Shown: piece by piece, positions 12,951 to 56,835 of the stretch
Layout: every line of letters starts with the position of its first letter
Numbering within the stretch: the stretch's first letter is position 1
IMG/VR virus record: IMGVR_UViG_3300038825_001331
Coordinates: 1 to 56,835 of that record
Length of the DNA: 56,835 nt
Direction: 5' to 3' (one strand)
From: a virus
Taxonomy: Duplodnaviria; Caudoviricetes
Notes under the pieces: model-generated
Told to the model about the DNA's origin: nothing
The model's input: the letters and a program-made list of their open reading frames with translations, nothing else
Database searches by the model: none
Made by a program: the position numbers and the translations under genes

Positions 12951-12979
12951 TTGACAGGTACCACACGGTGTGGTATCTT
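12951..12979 (+). promoter_or_regulatory. Sigma70-type promoter with palindromic spacer
   Basis: TTGACA-17-TATCTT with extended TG; contains the palindrome TACCACAC-G-GTGTGGTA. Confidence 0.75.
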
Positions 12980-15732: not shown

Positions 15733-16259
15733 TTTACCGCAGAGCCGGCCCCAAGTATCGCTGCCCAGATAGCGACCACCACCTTATAGCAATAGACCTC
15801 GGTAAGCGTAAGGTGGGGGTAGCGTGGGGCAGCGTCATCGAAGGGGTGGCAGGGCTCCACGGCGCCGCAACTGTGATCTGCAATAGTGGACCCGAAGATA
15901 TGGCAAAGAAGGTTGTAGACTTATTGTTGGCCAAAACACAGTCTCCCCGATACTGGGTGTGTGAGTGGCCAAAGAAGTACGACCGATGGCTGGCTAGACA
16001 TAAAAATATTGAAGAACTGCACCAGGTAGGGTATGCTTTAGGAAGGTATCACCCTTGGGACGAGATGTATTTACCTGGAGAATGGAAAGGAAATGTACCA
16101 AAAACTCCCCACCATAACCGGATTGGGGCAGCTTTGTACCAGAAAGAACGGAGTAGAATGCCGCCCCTAAAAGAACATGACGCATGGGATGCGGCTGGCA
16201 TATGGTTATATGCCGCAGGACGAACGAGAAGAGGCGGAATAATAACACGTCGCTATTGA
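15729..16259 (+). CDS. RuvC-like Holliday junction resolvase
   Basis: LIAIDLG...VCE...WK...HDAWDA acidic RNase H-fold pattern; follows the polymerase. Confidence 0.75.
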   Translation: MIYRRAGPKYRCPDSDHHLIAIDLGKRKVGVAWGSVIEGVAGLHGAATVICNSGPEDMAKKVVDLLLAKTQSPRYWVCEWPKKYDRWLARHKNIEELHQVGYALGRYHPWDEMYLPGEWKGNVPKTPHHNRIGAALYQKERSRMPPLKEHDAWDAAGIWLYAAGRTRRGGIITRRY

Positions 16260-16284
16260 CAACAAAAAAGAAATAGGGTATAGT
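16256..16284 (+). promoter_or_regulatory. Sigma70-type promoter
   Basis: TTGACA-17-TATAGT; the -35 overlaps the resolvase TGA stop. Confidence 0.75.
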
Positions 16285-17476: not shown

Positions 17477-17666
17477 GTATCATTGCCCTCGATGTGGACA
17501 CACCACGGAGAAGATGCGTAAGGTTGCAAATAGGGACAAGCCCGTGGAATGCGAGGCCCCCTTCTGCGACAAGGACATGCCGCCGGTTCGTAAGATGAGT
17601 ATCACCAGCTTTTCCCTCAAAGGAGGGGGCTGGTATGCCGATGGTTATTCCTCAAAGAAACCTTGA
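17463..17666 (+). CDS. FmdB-family zinc-ribbon protein
   Basis: MPIYEYHCPRCGH...C....C...FSLKGGGWYADGY. Confidence 0.85.
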   Translation: MPIYEYHCPRCGHTTEKMRKVANRDKPVECEAPFCDKDMPPVRKMSITSFSLKGGGWYADGYSSKKP

Positions 17667-17691
17667 CAACTTAATATCATTGCGGTATATT
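17663..17691 (+). promoter_or_regulatory. Sigma70-type promoter
   Basis: TTGACA-17-TATATT; the -35 overlaps the TGA stop of the zinc-ribbon gene. Confidence 0.7.
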
Positions 17692-18111: not shown

Positions 18112-18141
18112 CAAGCCCCCTTGGTTTTCCAAGGGGGCTTG
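18112..18141. terminator. Bidirectional terminator between the convergent arms
   Basis: Perfect 13-bp stem CAAGCCCCCTTGG-TTTT-CCAAGGGGGCTTG with A/T-rich flanks. Confidence 0.8.
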
Positions 18142-44728: not shown

Positions 44729-44757
44729 TACATAACACAGCTAATACACAATGTCAA
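44729..44757 (-). promoter_or_regulatory. Minus-arm promoter
   Basis: TTGACA-ttgtgtattagctgtgt-TATGTA; the -35 contains the nrdJ stop. Confidence 0.65.
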
Positions 44758-46649
44758 ATCTCGCAGGAGCCACCAACGCAAGCAAGCTCTTTGGCGCCCT
44801 CTCCTCTATCTTCTTGTTCGTAATACGTTAGCATAGAATAATCTATTCTTGGAAAAGCAAGCATTCGTCGTTTGTACTCAAGCTCATCAATTTCTTCATA
44901 CGGAGCAAGCTCATACTTTCCTCCGTCGTAAGGTAGAAAGCTAACGCCCGTAATCCTATCAAAGTTTTCGTATACCCAAGCGCCCACCGAGTCCCACTCT
45001 TCCTCTTTGACATAAATAGTGGCGCTTTGGTTGTGGCCCTTTTGATTACACCAAGTGTCCATTACTGTTTTATATCGACGAAGCTGGTCTAGTGCCGTTT
45101 CATCTTCTCGGAGCATGGCTCGTTCTGGACTTGCTACAGGGAACTCTACAACCCAAGTATTGTTTCTATCTTCTATACAAGGTGCCCCTGCGTCTCTGAC
45201 TAAGGAAAGTAGGGGGTCGTCCCCAGAGATTCTTACGCGACGAATATAAAACGGGGAGTAGCGAGCGTGAAACCCGCTAGAACAGTCTAGTATCTGACTA
45301 CTATTGCCGCTAGGCTTTCCGCAAGTTACTGCCGCAGGAGAGTTAATTCCCAACCAAGCCGCAGCAATGTCTGCCGTTTTTCTAGCAACTCTGTTAAACA
45401 AGGCCATTGCCTCTACGTCGTTGGCCAATGCGGGGTTGTCGCACTGCCCTGTGATGTCTACCCCTAGCAGTCGATCCTCTTCACACATCTCCCTCCATGC
45501 TGGACGTAGATAGGGAAAGTGGGTAAAAGACGCCTGCACAGCACCGATCCATGCAGCTAAGCGAACCTTTTCTGAGAAAGACGCAATGGTGTCTTCTTCT
45601 CGCATTACAGCACAGCTAAGATTGCATAGTTGCCCTCCTCCGCCTGCACCGGTCCATGGATTAGTTGCCTTCTTGTATCTAAGAAGAATCTCCCCGCAAG
45701 GATTGCTTCGCATCTCTTGCGTTCCGCGCTCTTTGGCTTTCTGTGGGGGAACACGGAACATTCCTCGCTCACCGGAGCCGCTTTGTTTAAGAGATTCCCA
45801 CTCGGCATAGAAAGTATCTCTGTCTGGCTTTTCATTCCAAAACACGCTGTTGTTTGCCATGTACCTGCAGGCAGGAAACTCTCCTAGCGCCCAGTTCTTT
45901 GCGTTTCGCATCTGCTCATCATCAGCATCACTAAAAGAAATAAGGGCGGCACGACGAACGCCTCCGGCCATCACAACCTCTCCCACGGTACACATAATGT
46001 CATGCACCTCTATAGGAAAAAGTTTTCTGCCTCCTGCACCTTGCACAACGCTTTTTGCAAAGTCCAAAAGCCTAATTAGCGGCTCGGGGCCGCTAGCGCG
46101 GCCCCCCTTTGTGTTGAGGCGGGAGCCGGCGGGTCGGATGTTGGAGAAGTCGAATACGGTGTCGGCACCACACCACCACGACGTTAATCCGGCTTTGAAT
46201 GCGTTTGCCCAGCCTTCAGCAGAGTCTTCTACAACGTAGTGCCGAGTTCGGTCGGCTGTAAGGGGTTCCACCGTGGGGAGGTTGCTCACAAACTGTCGCT
46301 CAACGCTAAAGCCTACACCGGTTCCCTGCATAAGAATATAGAGCGCCTCGGAGAACGCTGGGATGCAGTCTACCGGCAAGAACGCGCAGTTATACGCACT
46401 CAGGTTATCGCGTGCCATGCTCGGCCCTGCGCTCCACAATGCTCGCATAGATGGAAGAACGTCAAGATTTTTAACGGCTTCAGACATATCTTGGAACACG
46501 TCTGCGGGCAGCTTTCGCTGACTTACGATAAAATTAAGGTACCTATCTAGCGCCTCGTCTGGAGTTTCGCGCCGTTCGCTATCCTCTACCCAACGGCAAT
46601 ACGATCGGGTAAAAACAAATTCTGCGAGGGCATTGCGAAACTTTGACAT
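44754..46649 (-). CDS. nrdJ: Class II (adenosylcobalamin-dependent) ribonucleotide reductase
   Basis: PSMRALW, YNC, GTGVGFS, ASGPEPL, SNPCGEI, CNL, KPSG and C-terminal CVGGSCEI; no nrdB partner seen. Confidence 0.92.
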   Translation of the reverse strand: MSKFRNALAEFVFTRSYCRWVEDSERRETPDEALDRYLNFIVSQRKLPADVFQDMSEAVKNLDVLPSMRALWSAGPSMARDNLSAYNCAFLPVDCIPAFSEALYILMQGTGVGFSVERQFVSNLPTVEPLTADRTRHYVVEDSAEGWANAFKAGLTSWWCGADTVFDFSNIRPAGSRLNTKGGRASGPEPLIRLLDFAKSVVQGAGGRKLFPIEVHDIMCTVGEVVMAGGVRRAALISFSDADDEQMRNAKNWALGEFPACRYMANNSVFWNEKPDRDTFYAEWESLKQSGSGERGMFRVPPQKAKERGTQEMRSNPCGEILLRYKKATNPWTGAGGGGQLCNLSCAVMREEDTIASFSEKVRLAAWIGAVQASFTHFPYLRPAWREMCEEDRLLGVDITGQCDNPALANDVEAMALFNRVARKTADIAAAWLGINSPAAVTCGKPSGNSSQILDCSSGFHARYSPFYIRRVRISGDDPLLSLVRDAGAPCIEDRNNTWVVEFPVASPERAMLREDETALDQLRRYKTVMDTWCNQKGHNQSATIYVKEEEWDSVGAWVYENFDRITGVSFLPYDGGKYELAPYEEIDELEYKRRMLAFPRIDYSMLTYYEQEDRGEGAKELACVGGSCEI

Positions 46650-52701: not shown

Positions 52702-53585
52702 TCGTCGTCCTGTATGGTGGGGTCCATGTTTGTTTCCCCATAAACGTACTGCCAGTGTTTTTTATCCGACGCGCACATTGCGTTAATCGCCTGGGTCACT
52801 GCGCGTTTGGGTTGGTAGTCCGTTGTGCTGTATGCGTGTTCCCCTGGTGCGCCAGGGTCGTGCTCTCGTGGGGCAAAGTTTTCGCTGTTCTTAGTAAACG
52901 CCCACGCTAGGTCTGTCATTTCGTATTGTTCTAGTAGTTCTGCGCGTTTTTTCTCCTGCAGTTGGTGCCGCTTTTTATCCTCGCGGCGTTGTTCGGCGTA
53001 CACAGGGTCTTCCATGCTTTGCTCATACCAGTCCTTGTGCCGCTGTTGACACCAATCCCGGTTGTCGTGGTAGTAGCCCCTGCTTTTTTTGTTGGCACAG
53101 TTCCTGCATATGTGCCGGTAGCCATCTGGCGAATACTTGTCACGATGGTAACCATCGTATGTGGCCATGTGCCGAGCTTTGTTGTCTAGTGATAGCTTTC
53201 TGCCTTGTGCCCTGCGGGTGTTTTTTAGTTCTTCGGCGTCCTGAAGAAAGTTACTCGGGTGGTTGCGGGCCTTCATTACCTCGTCGGGTAATATGGTTCG
53301 GGGCTGTTTGCACTTACTACACTCCTTGGTGTCACCGGGCTGTAGCCACCCCGCCGGATTTGTAGGGTGCCTACGTGTGCGTGGCCGCAGTTTTGGTAGA
53401 TTACTATAATCAAACGCCTCGCCTTCTAAGGCTTGCTTGGGTGTCATGCCCTTTTTTAATCTGCGGTAATAAGTAACGCGGCTAATATTATACCAGCGGC
53501 AGGCCTCGTCGATACTAGAGAACGATAACTCTTGTCCGTTGGCGGCGGTAAAATTAACTGAGTGTCCTTGTTTATTATTAGCCAT
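52698..53585 (-). CDS. DNA-binding protein (HTH plus two CxxC pairs), homing-endonuclease-like modules
   Basis: FSSIDEACRWYNISRVTYYRRLKKG; KECSKC...DGYRHICRNC; no clear HNH catalytic motif. Confidence 0.6.
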   Translation of the reverse strand: MANNKQGHSVNFTAANGQELSFSSIDEACRWYNISRVTYYRRLKKGMTPKQALEGEAFDYSNLPKLRPRTRRHPTNPAGWLQPGDTKECSKCKQPRTILPDEVMKARNHPSNFLQDAEELKNTRRAQGRKLSLDNKARHMATYDGYHRDKYSPDGYRHICRNCANKKSRGYYHDNRDWCQQRHKDWYEQSMEDPVYAEQRREDKKRHQLQEKKRAELLEQYEMTDLAWAFTKNSENFAPREHDPGAPGEHAYSTTDYQPKRAVTQAINAMCASDKKHWQYVYGETNMDPTIQDDE

Positions 53586-53675: not shown

Positions 53676-53832
53676 CCATGTTACAACGATACGTGACCAG
53701 GAAAAACCTATATGTATTAAATAACATCTATCGTTGTTAACTATAATTAATTAATTAAAAAGGCACCCGTTAATGCGAGATAGTAAATATATACATAAGG
53801 GTTTTCTCTGGTCACGTATCGTTGTAACATGG
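53676..53832. repeat. Long inverted repeat around an AT-rich spacer
   Basis: Perfect 25-bp arms CCATGTTACAACGATACGTGACCAG (53676-53700, 53808-53832), extending imperfectly inward by ~17 bp. Confidence 0.9.
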
Positions 53833-54000
53833 CCCGTTATTAATTTTATCGTGCGCTAGGTGTTACAGTTATAGCCGTTATAGTATAATTAATAGCGCTA
53901 AAAATAATAGTAATAAAAAAACCCCGTCGTTTAAAGCACCTCCTGGATTATATAATAATGGGGGCCGGGGAGGGAAAGAGGTACCCCCTATGGGTCCTTA

Positions 54001-54765
54001 TTGCAAGTCGATTGCTATAACAAGTCGATTGCTATAACAAGTCGATTGCATTTATAGTTGGCATGGTTATTGCAAGGGAAACATAGTTGGCATGGTTATT
54101 GCAAGGGGCCACGGGATGCATTTGGGATGCATTACATTTGGGATGCATTTGGGATGCAAACGTAATGCAAACGGGATGCAAACGGGATGCCTTTATAGTT
54201 GGCATGGTTATTGCAAGGGAACATAGGACTTGGCATGTCAAGACACTGAATAAGGTATAACTTTAGGGAATAGGTGTTCTATATGCTATGGACATTTTAT
54301 GTCCGGCTATAGGTGGGCAAATCCCGTCATATTTAGCTTTTAAGACGTTTCAAGGGGTCAAGGCATGGAATCATACCGGGTATAACGTCCAAAGCCAGTC
54401 AGACGAAAATGGGTCGCAGTACAGCGAATAGCAGTGTTCAGTAGGTGAACATATGTTCAGGACATTTTCTGTCCGGGTATTATTATCAATAGTTGGCATG
54501 ATTATTGCAACACGGGCGCGGGTTCTACTTCTATTCGCATAGGCATAAAGTAAACAAGGTTTACAGAGTGAACAAGGTTTACAGAGTTAGTTGGTAATGG
54601 GTTATTATTGCAAGTCTATTGCAATAAAGGCAGTATTGGAGCGCAGTACAGCGAATAGCCGAAAAGCAAGGTTTAACCTGGGTTTTCAAATGCGCGCCAC
54701 GGCTATAATATCTGACAAGAAAAAAAATAAAAAAATTTTTATCCAGGTTTAACCTGGGTTTTCGG
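54001..54765. repeat. Cluster of short direct repeats (origin or packaging region candidate)
   Basis: CAAGTCGATTGCTATAA x~3; TAGTTGGCATGGTTATTGCAA x3 plus a variant; GGGATGCA x~6; AACAAGGTTTACAGAGT, CGCAGTACAGCGAATAGC, AGGTTTAACCTGGGTTTTC and GGACATTTTWTGTCCGG x2 each. Confidence 0.85.
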
Positions 54766-54839
54766 CCAATTTTAGGGGTCAATCGGAGCGAGTGCATTTG
54801 CAATATGCCCATGACCCGATAGATACTGATTGAGCGAGG

Positions 54840-55555
54840 CGGGAACCCGGTAACGGGGACCGGCCAAGCGATGCTCTTTTAGGTTCTGAAGTTTCGCGAG
54901 TCGAGCACTGGCCCATTGAATCCCTGGATTCTATATAGTGCGCATCGTTTGAGGTATCGTGGATTGAATCCACGGAGGATAGGCCTTGGGTCTATTCGGA
55001 GTGAGCTGGTCACCATGGTGACGGGCGTAGCTTGAAGGCGTCTTTAAACGCGTCACGATACCGTCAGGTCTTTGACATCCTGTATTGTTTGGTAGTTAGT
55101 TAATAAATCGAGCGGCGTTAAGTAAAGCGCACCGATTGGCAAGTGGAGATAAAGACCAGCTATTCCGAGCCATGGCGAAGGGTAGCATATAGGGGCGGCG
55201 CGGTGATTCCGGCCAAGCCTATATTGGGTCAAGTCAATGAAGCGATACCCAGGGGTATCAGTCAACGGTGTGGCATTGAAAAGCGCTCAACGGTGGACGG
55301 ACTAACTACCAGGCAAGCGACATAACAGGCCAGAGTAACGCACCACAGAAACGTCGCAGTGACTGTGTGAGTCTGGCCGAATGAGGTAGCGGGATAGCGA
55401 TAGCAAGCTATCCGATGGAATGGTAACGCGGTTACGCGGTGCCGGACTCGTTTCCTGGTAGGGGTGCTGAGGCCCTACCGAAATAAACCGTACCCGGTTA
55501 GGGTACCCCTTAAGCGCATGAACTATGTGGTCCGTGTGCTTATCAGTCCCCTAAC
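54840..55555 (+). ncRNA. Putative large structured non-coding RNA (~720 nt)
   Basis: More than a dozen nested stems, including a 17-bp long-range helix 55085-55101/55300-55316; G-U wobbles work on the + strand; no credible ORF. Confidence 0.7.
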
Positions 55556-55569
55556 GCTTGAGGTTTATC

Positions 55570-56196
55570 ATGCCTAAACTACGTCTAATCGACGCCACCC
55601 CTACACCTGACAAAAGGCGAAAGCCCGCTGCCCGCTTGGAGTCTATGGCTCGTGCCGGTGTGGACGGTCGCCACTGGTACGCCACCGCCACCGCTAATGT
55701 GGTATCCGCTTCCCGTGTTCTCAACTGTTCGCCTGAATGGTTCGCTGCTGTCTTAGGTGTAACCTCTCCAAGGGTCCACGTATCCCGTAACGTCAAGCTA
55801 TCCATAGCCTATGCCCTTAACGGGTCCACCGCTGGCACTATGCCCATGGTACGTGTCGGACTGGCCAAGTTATCCGCCATTGGTGGCCGCCACTGTCAGG
55901 ACCTTGACGCCATGACTGCCACCATGGGACCCAAGACAGGACCGTTCGCCCGTGCTTTAGCTGGTGACCTCGACGCTGTAGTGCTCGACGTGTGGATGGC
56001 CCGTGCCCTTGGCCTTGACCAGGCACAGTTCAGTCACAAGCCCACCCATCGGAAGGCATGCGACCGTATCCGCCAGGTAGCTGACCGCCTTGGGTGGAGA
56101 CCGGCAGAAGTGCAGGCTGCCATCTGGACCGCCGCCTATCGTGCCCACTATACTGACGCTACAGTACCTCAGTTCACTATCTCACTTGACGCATAA
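55570..56196 (+). CDS. HhH-GPD-like DNA glycosylase-related phage protein (DUF7178-like)
   Basis: WY...TSPR...N...GPKT..F...L.G....VVLDVWM.R...VQAAIW pattern; GAGG SD. Confidence 0.6.
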   Translation: MPKLRLIDATPTPDKRRKPAARLESMARAGVDGRHWYATATANVVSASRVLNCSPEWFAAVLGVTSPRVHVSRNVKLSIAYALNGSTAGTMPMVRVGLAKLSAIGGRHCQDLDAMTATMGPKTGPFARALAGDLDAVVLDVWMARALGLDQAQFSHKPTHRKACDRIRQVADRLGWRPAEVQAAIWTAAYRAHYTDATVPQFTISLDA

Positions 56197-56233
56197 CCCC
56201 CTTATAACCCACTCTATTGGAGACTCTATCATG
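56191..56233 (+). repeat. Stop-to-start intergenic repeat copy
   Basis: GCATAACCCCCTTATAACCCACTCTATTGGAGACTCTATCATG. Confidence 0.9.
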
Positions 56234-56815
56234 ACCTGGACTATCGACCGCATCCACCGCGCCGCTACCACTATCGACATCCTCAACCGTATCATCTGTG
56301 ATATGCAGGATATAACCTACAATGCCACCGCCACCGCTCCCGATACGTGGCCCGCACTACAGGCCAGTGCCAAGTGGGGGAACCAGGGTGCTGCGTTTGG
56401 TTACAACTGGCATGCACTCCGCCACCGCGAAGTGTGGAACGGCGGTAGCGAACACACTATCTTCGCAGGTCCCGGTATCGCTGCCCCCACTGCCCGTGAC
56501 CGTAACTTCCGAGCCCGTGCCGTTCATGATTTCATTCACCTGGTCACCAATAACGACTTCACCCCCAAGGGTGAGCGCGCTACGTGTGAGCACCAAGTGC
56601 GATGGATGGAGTCCGCATGGGCTGCCCGTGTCAACGTTAGCCGCAAGCTATTCGACCGTACCATCCACGACCTTTCCGACGCCATCGCCTTGGTCCGTGC
56701 CGAGGTAGCTGGACAGGTGGAGTACAACGAAACGCACGACGGCGCCTTTCCCGTTGACCAGCTACAGTTCGCGCTCGACTACCTCAACGGTACCGCACCT
56801 GCGGACATGGCATAA
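56231..56815 (+). CDS. Conserved phage protein with HDxxH (zincin-like) motif
   Basis: RAVHDFIH...FTPKGE...AEVAGQ...GAFP; ATG 56231 follows the repeat SD. Confidence 0.6.
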   Translation: MTWTIDRIHRAATTIDILNRIICDMQDITYNATATAPDTWPALQASAKWGNQGAAFGYNWHALRHREVWNGGSEHTIFAGPGIAAPTARDRNFRARAVHDFIHLVTNNDFTPKGERATCEHQVRWMESAWAARVNVSRKLFDRTIHDLSDAIALVRAEVAGQVEYNETHDGAFPVDQLQFALDYLNGTAPADMA

Positions 56816-56835
56816 CCCCCTTACAACCTACCATA
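56810..56835 (+). repeat. Stop-to-start intergenic repeat copy spanning the circular junction
   Basis: GCATAACCCCCTTACAACCTACCATA continues into TCGGAGACTATCATG at 6-20. Confidence 0.85.

Follow-up and report, generated by a model that had tools for sequence, protein, structure and literature searches.

Why does a compact phage of 57 kb devote 1.3% of its genome to an untranslated, folded leader? The question is posed by the window analysed here, the complete 56,835-base record of a virus of the Caudoviricetes (IMGVR_UViG_3300038825_001331). Between its last minus-strand gene, which ends at 53585, and its first plus-strand ATG at 55570 lies a gap of 2 kb without a credible open reading frame (ORF), and the right-hand 740 nt of this gap are occupied by a structured RNA. 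An earlier note, made from the sequence alone, had described a large, ornate non-coding RNA on the plus strand at the head of the early arm; the pairing is indeed present and exceeds chance, over ~740 nt. The placement at the head of the arm was also sound, but the note overlooked that the RNA continues without a terminator into a ribosome site and an ATG, and is hence a leader. Our analyses indicate that positions 54832-55569 very probably encode a conserved, seven-domain, plus-strand RNA of ~740 nt, which belongs to no described family and forms the untranslated leader of an early operon of ~19 kb.

On the plus strand, the minimum free energy (MFE) of 54840-55555 is -278.5 kcal/mol, compared with -243.8 ± 5.4 kcal/mol for 20 dinucleotide shuffles (z = -6.44), and the same test gives z = -2.07 on the minus strand. 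With 100 shuffles of 54832-55572, z was -4.5 on the plus strand, where none of the 100 folded as low, and -2.6 on the minus strand. The folding score of the RNA is thus unlike that of shuffled sequence, as the earlier note had anticipated. Sliding 240-nt windows within the RNA gave unremarkable z-scores (-0.8 to -2.6) because such windows cut the long-range helices, and they were abandoned as a means of detecting relatives.

Homologues were sought through the protein encoded immediately downstream, which carries the domain DUF7178. The metagenome collection gave 58 loci, four of which, all on marine metagenome contigs, carry the RNA: L024 (84% identity), L025 (78%), L026 (80%) and L027 (78%), the last two truncated at their 5' ends by the end of the contig. 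A search of IMG/VR with the same protein returned distant relatives only, whose upstream DNA was not alignable. The family therefore has five known members, which were aligned with MAFFT without fitting to any structure; on this alignment, RNAalifold predicted 204 consensus base pairs in 32 helices. Changes on both sides of the pair (compensatory changes) were found in 53 of the 204 pairs, spread over 21 of the 32 helices, and 96.3% of the cells are standard pairs. Shuffled controls contained 24.6 ± 3.2 compensatory pairs, none of 500 shuffles reaching 53, and sliding the 3' partners by 1-3 columns left only 4-8. Covariation, the check that the earlier note had proposed, is therefore strong.

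The five sequences represent three lineages (the window, L024 with L025, and L026 with L027), so that cell counts overstate the independent events, and controls from the same genomes were therefore run. Only 3 of 81 predicted pairs were compensatory in 278 alignable columns upstream of the promoter, and 3 of 150 in the DUF7178 coding region, whereas the RNA itself gave 33 of 220 when three sequences only were used. The true covariation exceeds the count, because the closing helix of domain 2 is strand-swapped between lineages (L024 and L025) with its branch architecture retained, a change that the sequence alignment misses. Invariant columns make up 59% of the unpaired class and likewise 59% of the paired class. 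Outside the nested structure, 60 runs of at least five conserved complementary columns were found, with at most one covarying column pair in any run; tertiary contacts were considered on this basis and none was established.

The consensus structure also distinguishes the two strands. Its energy is -231.7 kcal/mol on the plus strand versus -142.0 kcal/mol on the minus strand, and the plus-strand structure contains 136 G-U cells versus 5 A-C cells, compared with 70 and 58 in the minus-strand structure. The remark that mismatches are mostly G-U on the plus strand was thus well founded and, because G-U cells far outnumber A-C cells there, selection acts on a plus-strand RNA and not on DNA palindromes. 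Compensatory changes above the controls together with these strand-specific G-U pairs identify the element as a conserved structured RNA. It is not protein-coding: stops interrupt all six frames of all five sequences (3 to 19 per frame), the longest plus-strand open stretch (31-67 codons) is not conserved among them, variable columns are distributed 94/91/90 by codon phase, and indels are mostly of 1, 2 or 4 nt, i.e., not multiples of three. Neither a conserved open frame nor three-base periodicity was found in the five sequences.

The helices named in the earlier note can be compared with this consensus individually. Thirteen of the 16 are present in it, and 12 of these 13 show compensatory changes: five pairs in GATAGGCC/GGTCTATT; four each in GCACTG/TAGTGC, GTCACCATGGTGAC, GGATAGC/GCTATCC and the long helix 55081-55101/55300-55319; three each in GAATCC/GGATTC, GATACCC/GGGTATC and GGTAGGG/CCCTACC; and two each in CACCGATTGGC/GTCAACGGTG, GGCCAGA/TCTGGCC, TAAGCGCATG/CGTGTGCTTA and GGTATCGTG/CACGATACC, the last with an additional flip of the whole helix in L024 and L025. 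CGTGGAT/ATCCACG is also in the consensus, with only 3 pairs because the alignment slips there. Three helices did not hold as written. The pairing AAGCGATGC/GCATCGTTT is specific to the window, the conserved and covarying partner of 54945-54948 being 54896-54899; GTACCC/GGGTAC is invariant and hence indistinguishable from a rival pairing of 55497-55506 with 55546-55555; and the 5' hairpin CCCG-GUAA-CGGG with a GNRA loop (54846-54857), which is present in the MFE structure of the window and identical in L024, is a different hairpin in L025.

Downstream of this hairpin, the plus-strand RNA is organized into successive domains. Domain 1 (54896-54948) consists of nested helices 2-5 beneath an invariant CCCUGG apex (54922-54927), and 9 of its 15 pairs are compensatory. 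Domain 2 (54953-55062) is multi-branched, closed by GGUAUCGUGG/UCACGAUACC, with inner hairpins at 54977-54997 and 55005-55026, the latter bearing an invariant CCAUGG apex; its architecture is the same when each of the five sequences is folded alone. Domain 3 (55081-55319), the largest, contains helices 13-22, is closed by a 20-pair helix (55081-55101/55300-55319) and has invariant junction strands such as AAGUGG (55141-55146) and UGAAGC (55238-55243). Domain 4 (55321-55383) is a long irregular hairpin made of helices 23-26, with 4 of 17 pairs compensatory, and domains 5-6 (55384-55479) comprise a three-way junction (helices 27-29) and the hairpin 55457-55479, with 11 of 32 pairs compensatory and an invariant strand, GACUCGUUUCCUGGU. 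Invariant apexes with covarying stems are also mutually complementary: CCCUGG at 54922-54927 can pair with CCAGGG at 55249-55254, and the self-complementary CCAUGG occurs at both 55013-55018 and 55170-55175.

The 3' domain (55483-55569) includes the translation start region and the hairpin 55511-55542. Two invariant and mutually exclusive pairings are available here, GUACCC/GGGUAC or 55497-55506 with 55546-55555, and AUAAACC at 55483-55489 is a possible partner of 55562-55568. For the GAGG ribosome site (55560-55563), a mostly paired state is predicted, with a mean unpaired probability of 0.00-0.33 in all five sequences.

Both this ribosome site and the ATG at 55570 belong to the conserved RNA block, and the terminator scan found no plus-strand terminator-like site between 54840 and 55570. 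As no terminator precedes the ribosome site and ATG, the RNA is a leader and not a free-standing gene. Three different genes follow the conserved ATG: in the window, L024 and L025 it starts the DUF7178 protein (in the window 208 aa, 55570-56196, plus strand; Pfam PF23802, E 1.3e-19), in L026 an 86-aa ORF and in L027 an 83-aa ORF. Since this start region is retained whichever gene follows, the leader seems to travel with its promoter and start site. The ORFs found between the RNA and DUF7178 are small, 86 aa and 79 aa in L026 (707-1222) and 83 aa in L027 (686-937); the 79-aa and 83-aa ORFs are homologous, and none of the inserted ORFs has a Pfam family.

At the 5' end, the promoter proposed in the earlier note, TTGCAA-N18-GATACT, was borne out in that its hexamers are kept in both homologues that reach it (L024 and L025). 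This putative early promoter, a plausibly host-type, sigma-70-like one, lies at 54798-54827 on the plus strand, with its -35 hexamer at 54798-54803, an 18-nt spacer and its -10 hexamer at 54822-54827. The hexamers are identical in L024 and read TTGCAT and CATACT in L025, where the spacer has changed at 6 of 18 positions; a generic promoter scan misses the site because only 8 of 12 consensus positions match. Transcription would start near 54833-54835. The 5' end of the structured RNA was set at ~54832 because upstream of the promoter the sequence is conserved but shows no covariation.

The RNA belongs to no family that we could identify. Rfam 15 gave no match at the gathering score over the whole window, the models including GOLLD, ROOL, OLE, HEARO, group I and II introns, RNase P, transfer-messenger RNA (tmRNA), 6S, ribozymes and riboswitches. 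At E up to 10, the sole plus-strand match inside the RNA was RF01691 (18.9 bits versus a gathering score of 31), and no match was common to the five sequences when the four homologues were searched as well. The earlier failure to assign a family thus extends to all five sequences. ARAGORN found no transfer RNA (tRNA) or tmRNA gene in the window, and the window proteins examined (28 with Pfam, 20 with PHROGs) include no reverse transcriptase, intron protein, RNA ligase or recognisable RNA-binding partner; the reported lack of an adjacent tRNA, reverse transcriptase or intron ORF is therefore confirmed. The RNA is single-copy in the genome and lies at the same position in five genomes. A mobile element (ORF-less intron, miniature inverted-repeat transposable element or retron) was rejected on these grounds and for want of a reverse transcriptase or intron protein among the 28 proteins.

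Two covariance models, R1 for the core of domain 3 and R2 for the 3' half, were run together with an nhmmer profile over 74-80 loci from DUF7178-encoding phages, and only the five known members scored. R1 gives 203-211 bits in these five and at most 10.3 bits elsewhere. The next-best model match (L035:2650-2799, 14.2 bits, E 0.053) was taken as noise. Motif scans of IMG/VR revealed no further member, and in GTDB genomes the pattern occurred 9 times, close to the chance expectation, with none of these matches confirmed by R1. Neither R1 nor R2 matches elsewhere in the window, and the suggestion that the RNA forms a set with elements at 1114 and 2985 (2992 in the earlier note) was not sustained, as both fold like shuffles (z -0.36 and +0.20). 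In the literature on Nus and boxA, GOLLD and ROOL, phage non-coding RNAs and metagenomic structured RNAs, surveyed mainly at the level of abstracts, the RNA is undescribed and no large structured leader is reported at the head of a phage early operon. We rate it as a new family within the kind of large structured phage RNAs and operon leaders; it could prove categorically new once its function is understood.

Another structured block was found upstream of DUF7178 in distant phages (L008:3000-3288, L039:1360-1641 and L009:2343-2620, with a weak match at L051:525-719). In three sequences it has 79 predicted pairs, 22 of them compensatory, and its location is again the long non-coding interval that precedes the DUF7178 gene. 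A 13-nt string, TTGACAAGTGGAG, is common to this block and domain 3 of L025-L027. Homology with the present RNA was nevertheless rejected at the available sensitivity: model R3 of the block misses the window, R1 gives only 8 bits on L008, and nhmmer finds nothing. The early arm of DUF7178 phages may thus recurrently begin with a structured RNA. In a further locus, L015:1-4000, the 4 kb in front of a partial DUF7178 match contain almost no ORF of at least 80 aa, which may reflect either an alternative genetic code in this phage or a non-coding region.

What the leader does is less certain than what it is, and the roles suggested in the earlier note (anti-defence decoy, scaffold, antiterminator or ribozyme) are conjecture. 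Tentatively, and at somewhat less than an even chance, we propose that it is a cis-acting, portable cassette for early expression. The RNA would fold during transcription into a compact, G-rich body (229 G versus 165 C), which would shield both the extended untranslated region and the downstream operon against Rho and 5'-end-dependent RNases. A Nus-type site, TGYTCTTT at ~+40, may assist, and the 3' domain would gate the first start codon via alternative pairings of the invariant strands GUUAGGGUAC and GUCCCCUAAC and the ribosome-site strand. The promoter, the start site and every functional step of this mechanism we infer from sequence. The hints at a role in cis are the conserved promoter hexamers, the single-stranded boxA-like core, the G-richness and the ribosome site that is predicted to be paired. 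Taken together, a structured leader that acts as a cis early-expression cassette is the best combined explanation, and we would give it an even chance.

The boxA-like core, TGYTCTTT at 54872-54879 on the plus strand, lies ~40 nt into the RNA in a single-stranded stretch and is kept in all four sequences that cover it. The gamma-proteobacterial boxA consensus is GYTCTTTAANA, and the C at position 4 is critical (10.1101/091223). Against this consensus, which may differ from that of the host, the window sequence GCTCTTTTAGG matches 9 of 11 positions if N is counted and 7 of 7 in the core, with C4 present; GTTCTTTCCAG in L024 and L025 deviates at positions 8, 9 and 11.

Several observations weigh against the cis cassette, or against the evidence for the leader as a whole. 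Only 7 of 11 positions match the boxA consensus, and the TGYTCTTT 8-mer is not enriched in the window (4 matches versus 4.9 expected). No clear intrinsic plus-strand terminator within the early arm calls for antitermination, the sole strong one (18112-18141) lying at the arm's end. The predicted partner of the ribosome site varies between lineages, and, with just three lineages, independent events are fewer than the counted cells. Known antiterminator RNAs are about ten times smaller, and 740 nt, 32 helices and invariant junction strands far exceed the needs of any known cis leader. In the RNA library X18, contigs are patchy, covering only 55410-55561 and 55889-56112 and partly fitting 34 nt at 54554-54587, which is upstream of the proposed promoter; a second RNA run (X21) has no contigs on the region. 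The X18 contigs are not taken as evidence of transcription, because the library derives from a virus fraction in which DNA carry-over is likely.

The excess of structure leads to the main rival, namely that a large ornate RNA is cut from the mRNA, e.g., at the 20-pair helix of domain 3 or before the ribosome site, and acts in trans. Once released, the RNA would act within the first minutes of infection, either as a scaffold, by assembling into multimers, or by decoying a host factor or a defence nuclease, much as is suspected for GOLLD and ROOL. In its favour, the size, the seven domains and the invariant junction strands are features typically seen in RNAs that adopt a tertiary fold; the invariant hairpin apexes are complementary and their stems covary; and the RNA would be the first transcribed product of the early arm. 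There is also precedent in the abundant ~800-nt non-coding RNA of the lytic phage ICP1 (PMC7567579). However, the RNA has no terminator and shows no sign of processing, being physically continuous with the ribosome site and ATG; the loop complementarities are not above chance, since they involve only invariant columns and 60 such runs exist; and screening of 28 window proteins revealed no obvious partner protein. An action in trans is, in our judgement, only somewhat less probable than the role in cis. A related proposal is that the RNA is the first representative of an undescribed class of large (>700 nt) ornate phage RNAs, has its own tertiary or quaternary architecture and works as an RNA machine rather than a passive leader; such an architecture is suggested by the invariant and mutually complementary hairpin apexes, and the proposal is a tentative one that we think less likely than not. 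As such a machine, and as the first product of infection, the RNA might act in host takeover or as an anti-defence decoy, form an RNA-only assembly or be a ribozyme.

Less probable, and in our estimation unlikely, is a ribozyme or a switch sensing a ligand or factor, in which the body senses a signal or cuts itself and the 3' domain switches translation of the first gene. Two mutually exclusive structures are indeed open to the invariant 3' strands, the ribosome site is predicted to be mostly paired in all five sequences, and unpaired columns are as conserved as paired ones. Nevertheless, even with the threshold relaxed to E 10, none of the five sequences matches a model of a self-cleaving ribozyme, intron or riboswitch; the sensors known so far are several-fold smaller; and the alternative pairings lack covariation because all their columns are invariant. 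More unlikely still is a transcript linked to a replication origin, which would prime or activate replication from the repeat-rich and A/T-rich region upstream, in the way that ColE1 RNA II primes replication. Iteron-like repeats, an inverted repeat with 42-nt arms and an A/T tract between identical 19-nt repeats do lie directly upstream, but the RNA is transcribed away from them into coding genes, nothing in it is complementary to them, and model searches find it as a single copy in the window. Finally, the view that there is no RNA, only DNA-level palindromes (protein binding sites or cruciforms) or chance, is close to refuted: although several hairpins are perfect DNA palindromes with a CCATGG or CCWGG apex and the minus strand, too, has somewhat lower folding energies than its shuffles (z -2.1 and -2.6), the marked G-U excess and the lower consensus energy belong to the plus strand, long-range helices spanning 240 nt covary, and the flanking DNA of the same genomes carries no such signal.

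Comparison with known systems places the structured leader between two kinds of RNA. GOLLD and ROOL belong to the same size class (580-800 nt), have many covarying helices, are associated with phages and are likewise of obscure function; they are reported to form RNA-only multimers (PMC12286853) and often adjoin tRNA genes (PMC7567579). In contrast, their Rfam models miss the present RNA even at E up to 10, no tRNA gene occurs in the present window, and the present RNA, instead of being free-standing, runs as a 5' leader directly into a start codon. The nearest precedent is that of the Vibrio phage ICP1, in which a ~800-nt non-coding transcript with no established role lies between gp139 and gp140 (PMC7567579). 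Like the present RNA, it is long and ORF-less and belongs to a lytic phage, but it is located beside the lysis cluster and not at the head of the early arm. Because blastn of 54600-55600 against 50,697 phage records gave no match, the ICP1 RNA is unrelated in sequence, and the same search revealed no close cultured phage.

The second kind comprises HK022 put, lambda nut and the boxA of ribosomal RNA (rrn) operons, antitermination signals that act in cis at the start of long operons, those of the put type by making RNA polymerase read through terminators. The leader resembles them in position, as it lies immediately after the putative early promoter that would drive a long operon. The order of a hairpin followed by a single-stranded boxA-like core also resembles that of rrn. 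Compared with put, the present RNA is about ten times larger, and it differs from nut and rrn boxA in its partial boxA match to the gamma-proteobacterial consensus and in the lack of evident internal terminators. Our best guess, by analogy, is that the RNA works like these leader devices of long operons. It resembles GOLLD and ROOL and belongs neither to them nor to the put, nut and boxA systems: no family model matches it, tRNA genes are missing from its vicinity, and it fits the boxA consensus only in part. Structured RNAs are also made from early promoters of podoviruses, namely the T7 early leader with its RNase III sites and the phi29 pRNA. RNase III cuts duplexes like the 20-pair helix of domain 3, whereas the T7 sites are single irregular hairpins; the phi29 pRNA is ~170 nt long and serves a packaging motor without a terminase, whereas the present phage encodes a terminase large subunit.

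To our knowledge, very few bacterial or phage RNAs of more than ~500 nt have conserved complex folds (ribosomal RNAs, introns, OLE, GOLLD and ROOL), and each of these opened new biology or structural principles. The comparative support for the present RNA is unusually clean for merely five sequences, and its site is experimentally tractable, as it would make up the first 740 nt from the putative early promoter and is joined to the first start codon. If true, each of the roles considered (a shield against Rho and RNases, a gate on the first gene, a takeover RNA acting in trans) would be a new device in the control of phage early genes. In addition, the promoter, leader and ribosome site appear to be mobile as a unit before different genes, which bears on phage mosaicism.

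Smaller repeats are associated with the same genes. A cassette of ~45 nt (GCATAACCCCCTTAYAACC...GGAGACT..ATCATG) recurs before successive early genes (56191-56233, 56810-56835 plus 1-20, and 725-766), and the last 30 nt of the RNA resemble it; this cassette is probably a recombination joint for gene shuffling. In the DNA run X13, one 772-nt contig corresponds exactly to 54815-55586, with assembly breaks at both sides, a coincidence that hints weakly at mosaic junctions at the edges of the module.

The left-hand part of the 2-kb gap is of a different character. Just past the last minus-strand gene lies an inverted repeat (53676-53832) with 42-nt arms that are 90% complementary and 73 nt apart; as its only Rfam matches are weak and microRNA-precursor-like (38.6 bits versus a gathering score of 110), it amounts to no more than a long hairpin. 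From 53990 to 54780 there follow dense iteron-like direct repeats (34 nt x4, 23 nt x5, 31 nt x4, 30 nt x2, 23 nt x2 and 18 nt x2), with an A/T-rich tract (54712-54745) between two identical 19-nt hairpin-like repeats (54669-54687 and 54745-54763). The repeats are kept in L024 and L025 and show no RNA covariation, and the region is a candidate replication origin or regulatory region. The L024 contig stops at a position equivalent to 54461; this is probably an assembly break and not a true terminus, because it lies inside a repeated hairpin.

L024 aligns colinearly across the end and start of the window (94.7% identity over 5.8 kb), and an ORF crosses the join, so that the ends of the window are contiguous and its cut is arbitrary. 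The plus-strand genes accordingly run from 55570 through the window end to ~18,100 and encode, by Pfam, a primase-helicase-like protein, a PD-(D/E)XK nuclease and a family A DNA polymerase. The minus-strand arm encodes the portal, the terminase large subunit and a protein of 2141 aa, and a gene resembling class II (B12-dependent) ribonucleotide reductases (44754-46649, minus strand) lies beside the portal gene. The two arms converge at the bidirectional terminator 18112-18141, whose G+C-rich hairpin of 13 perfect pairs has T runs on either strand. Near-consensus sigma-70 promoters (TTGACA-17-TATAGT, TATATT or TATCTT) occur within the plus-strand arm at 12951-12979, 16256-16284 and 17663-17691, and may be middle promoters. 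No host and no cultured relative was identified: the identity of the terminase to those of isolates does not exceed 25%, and the DUF7178 matches are to actinophages only, at ~30%. DNA of the phage is present in 20 marine or seawater runs from 7 studies.

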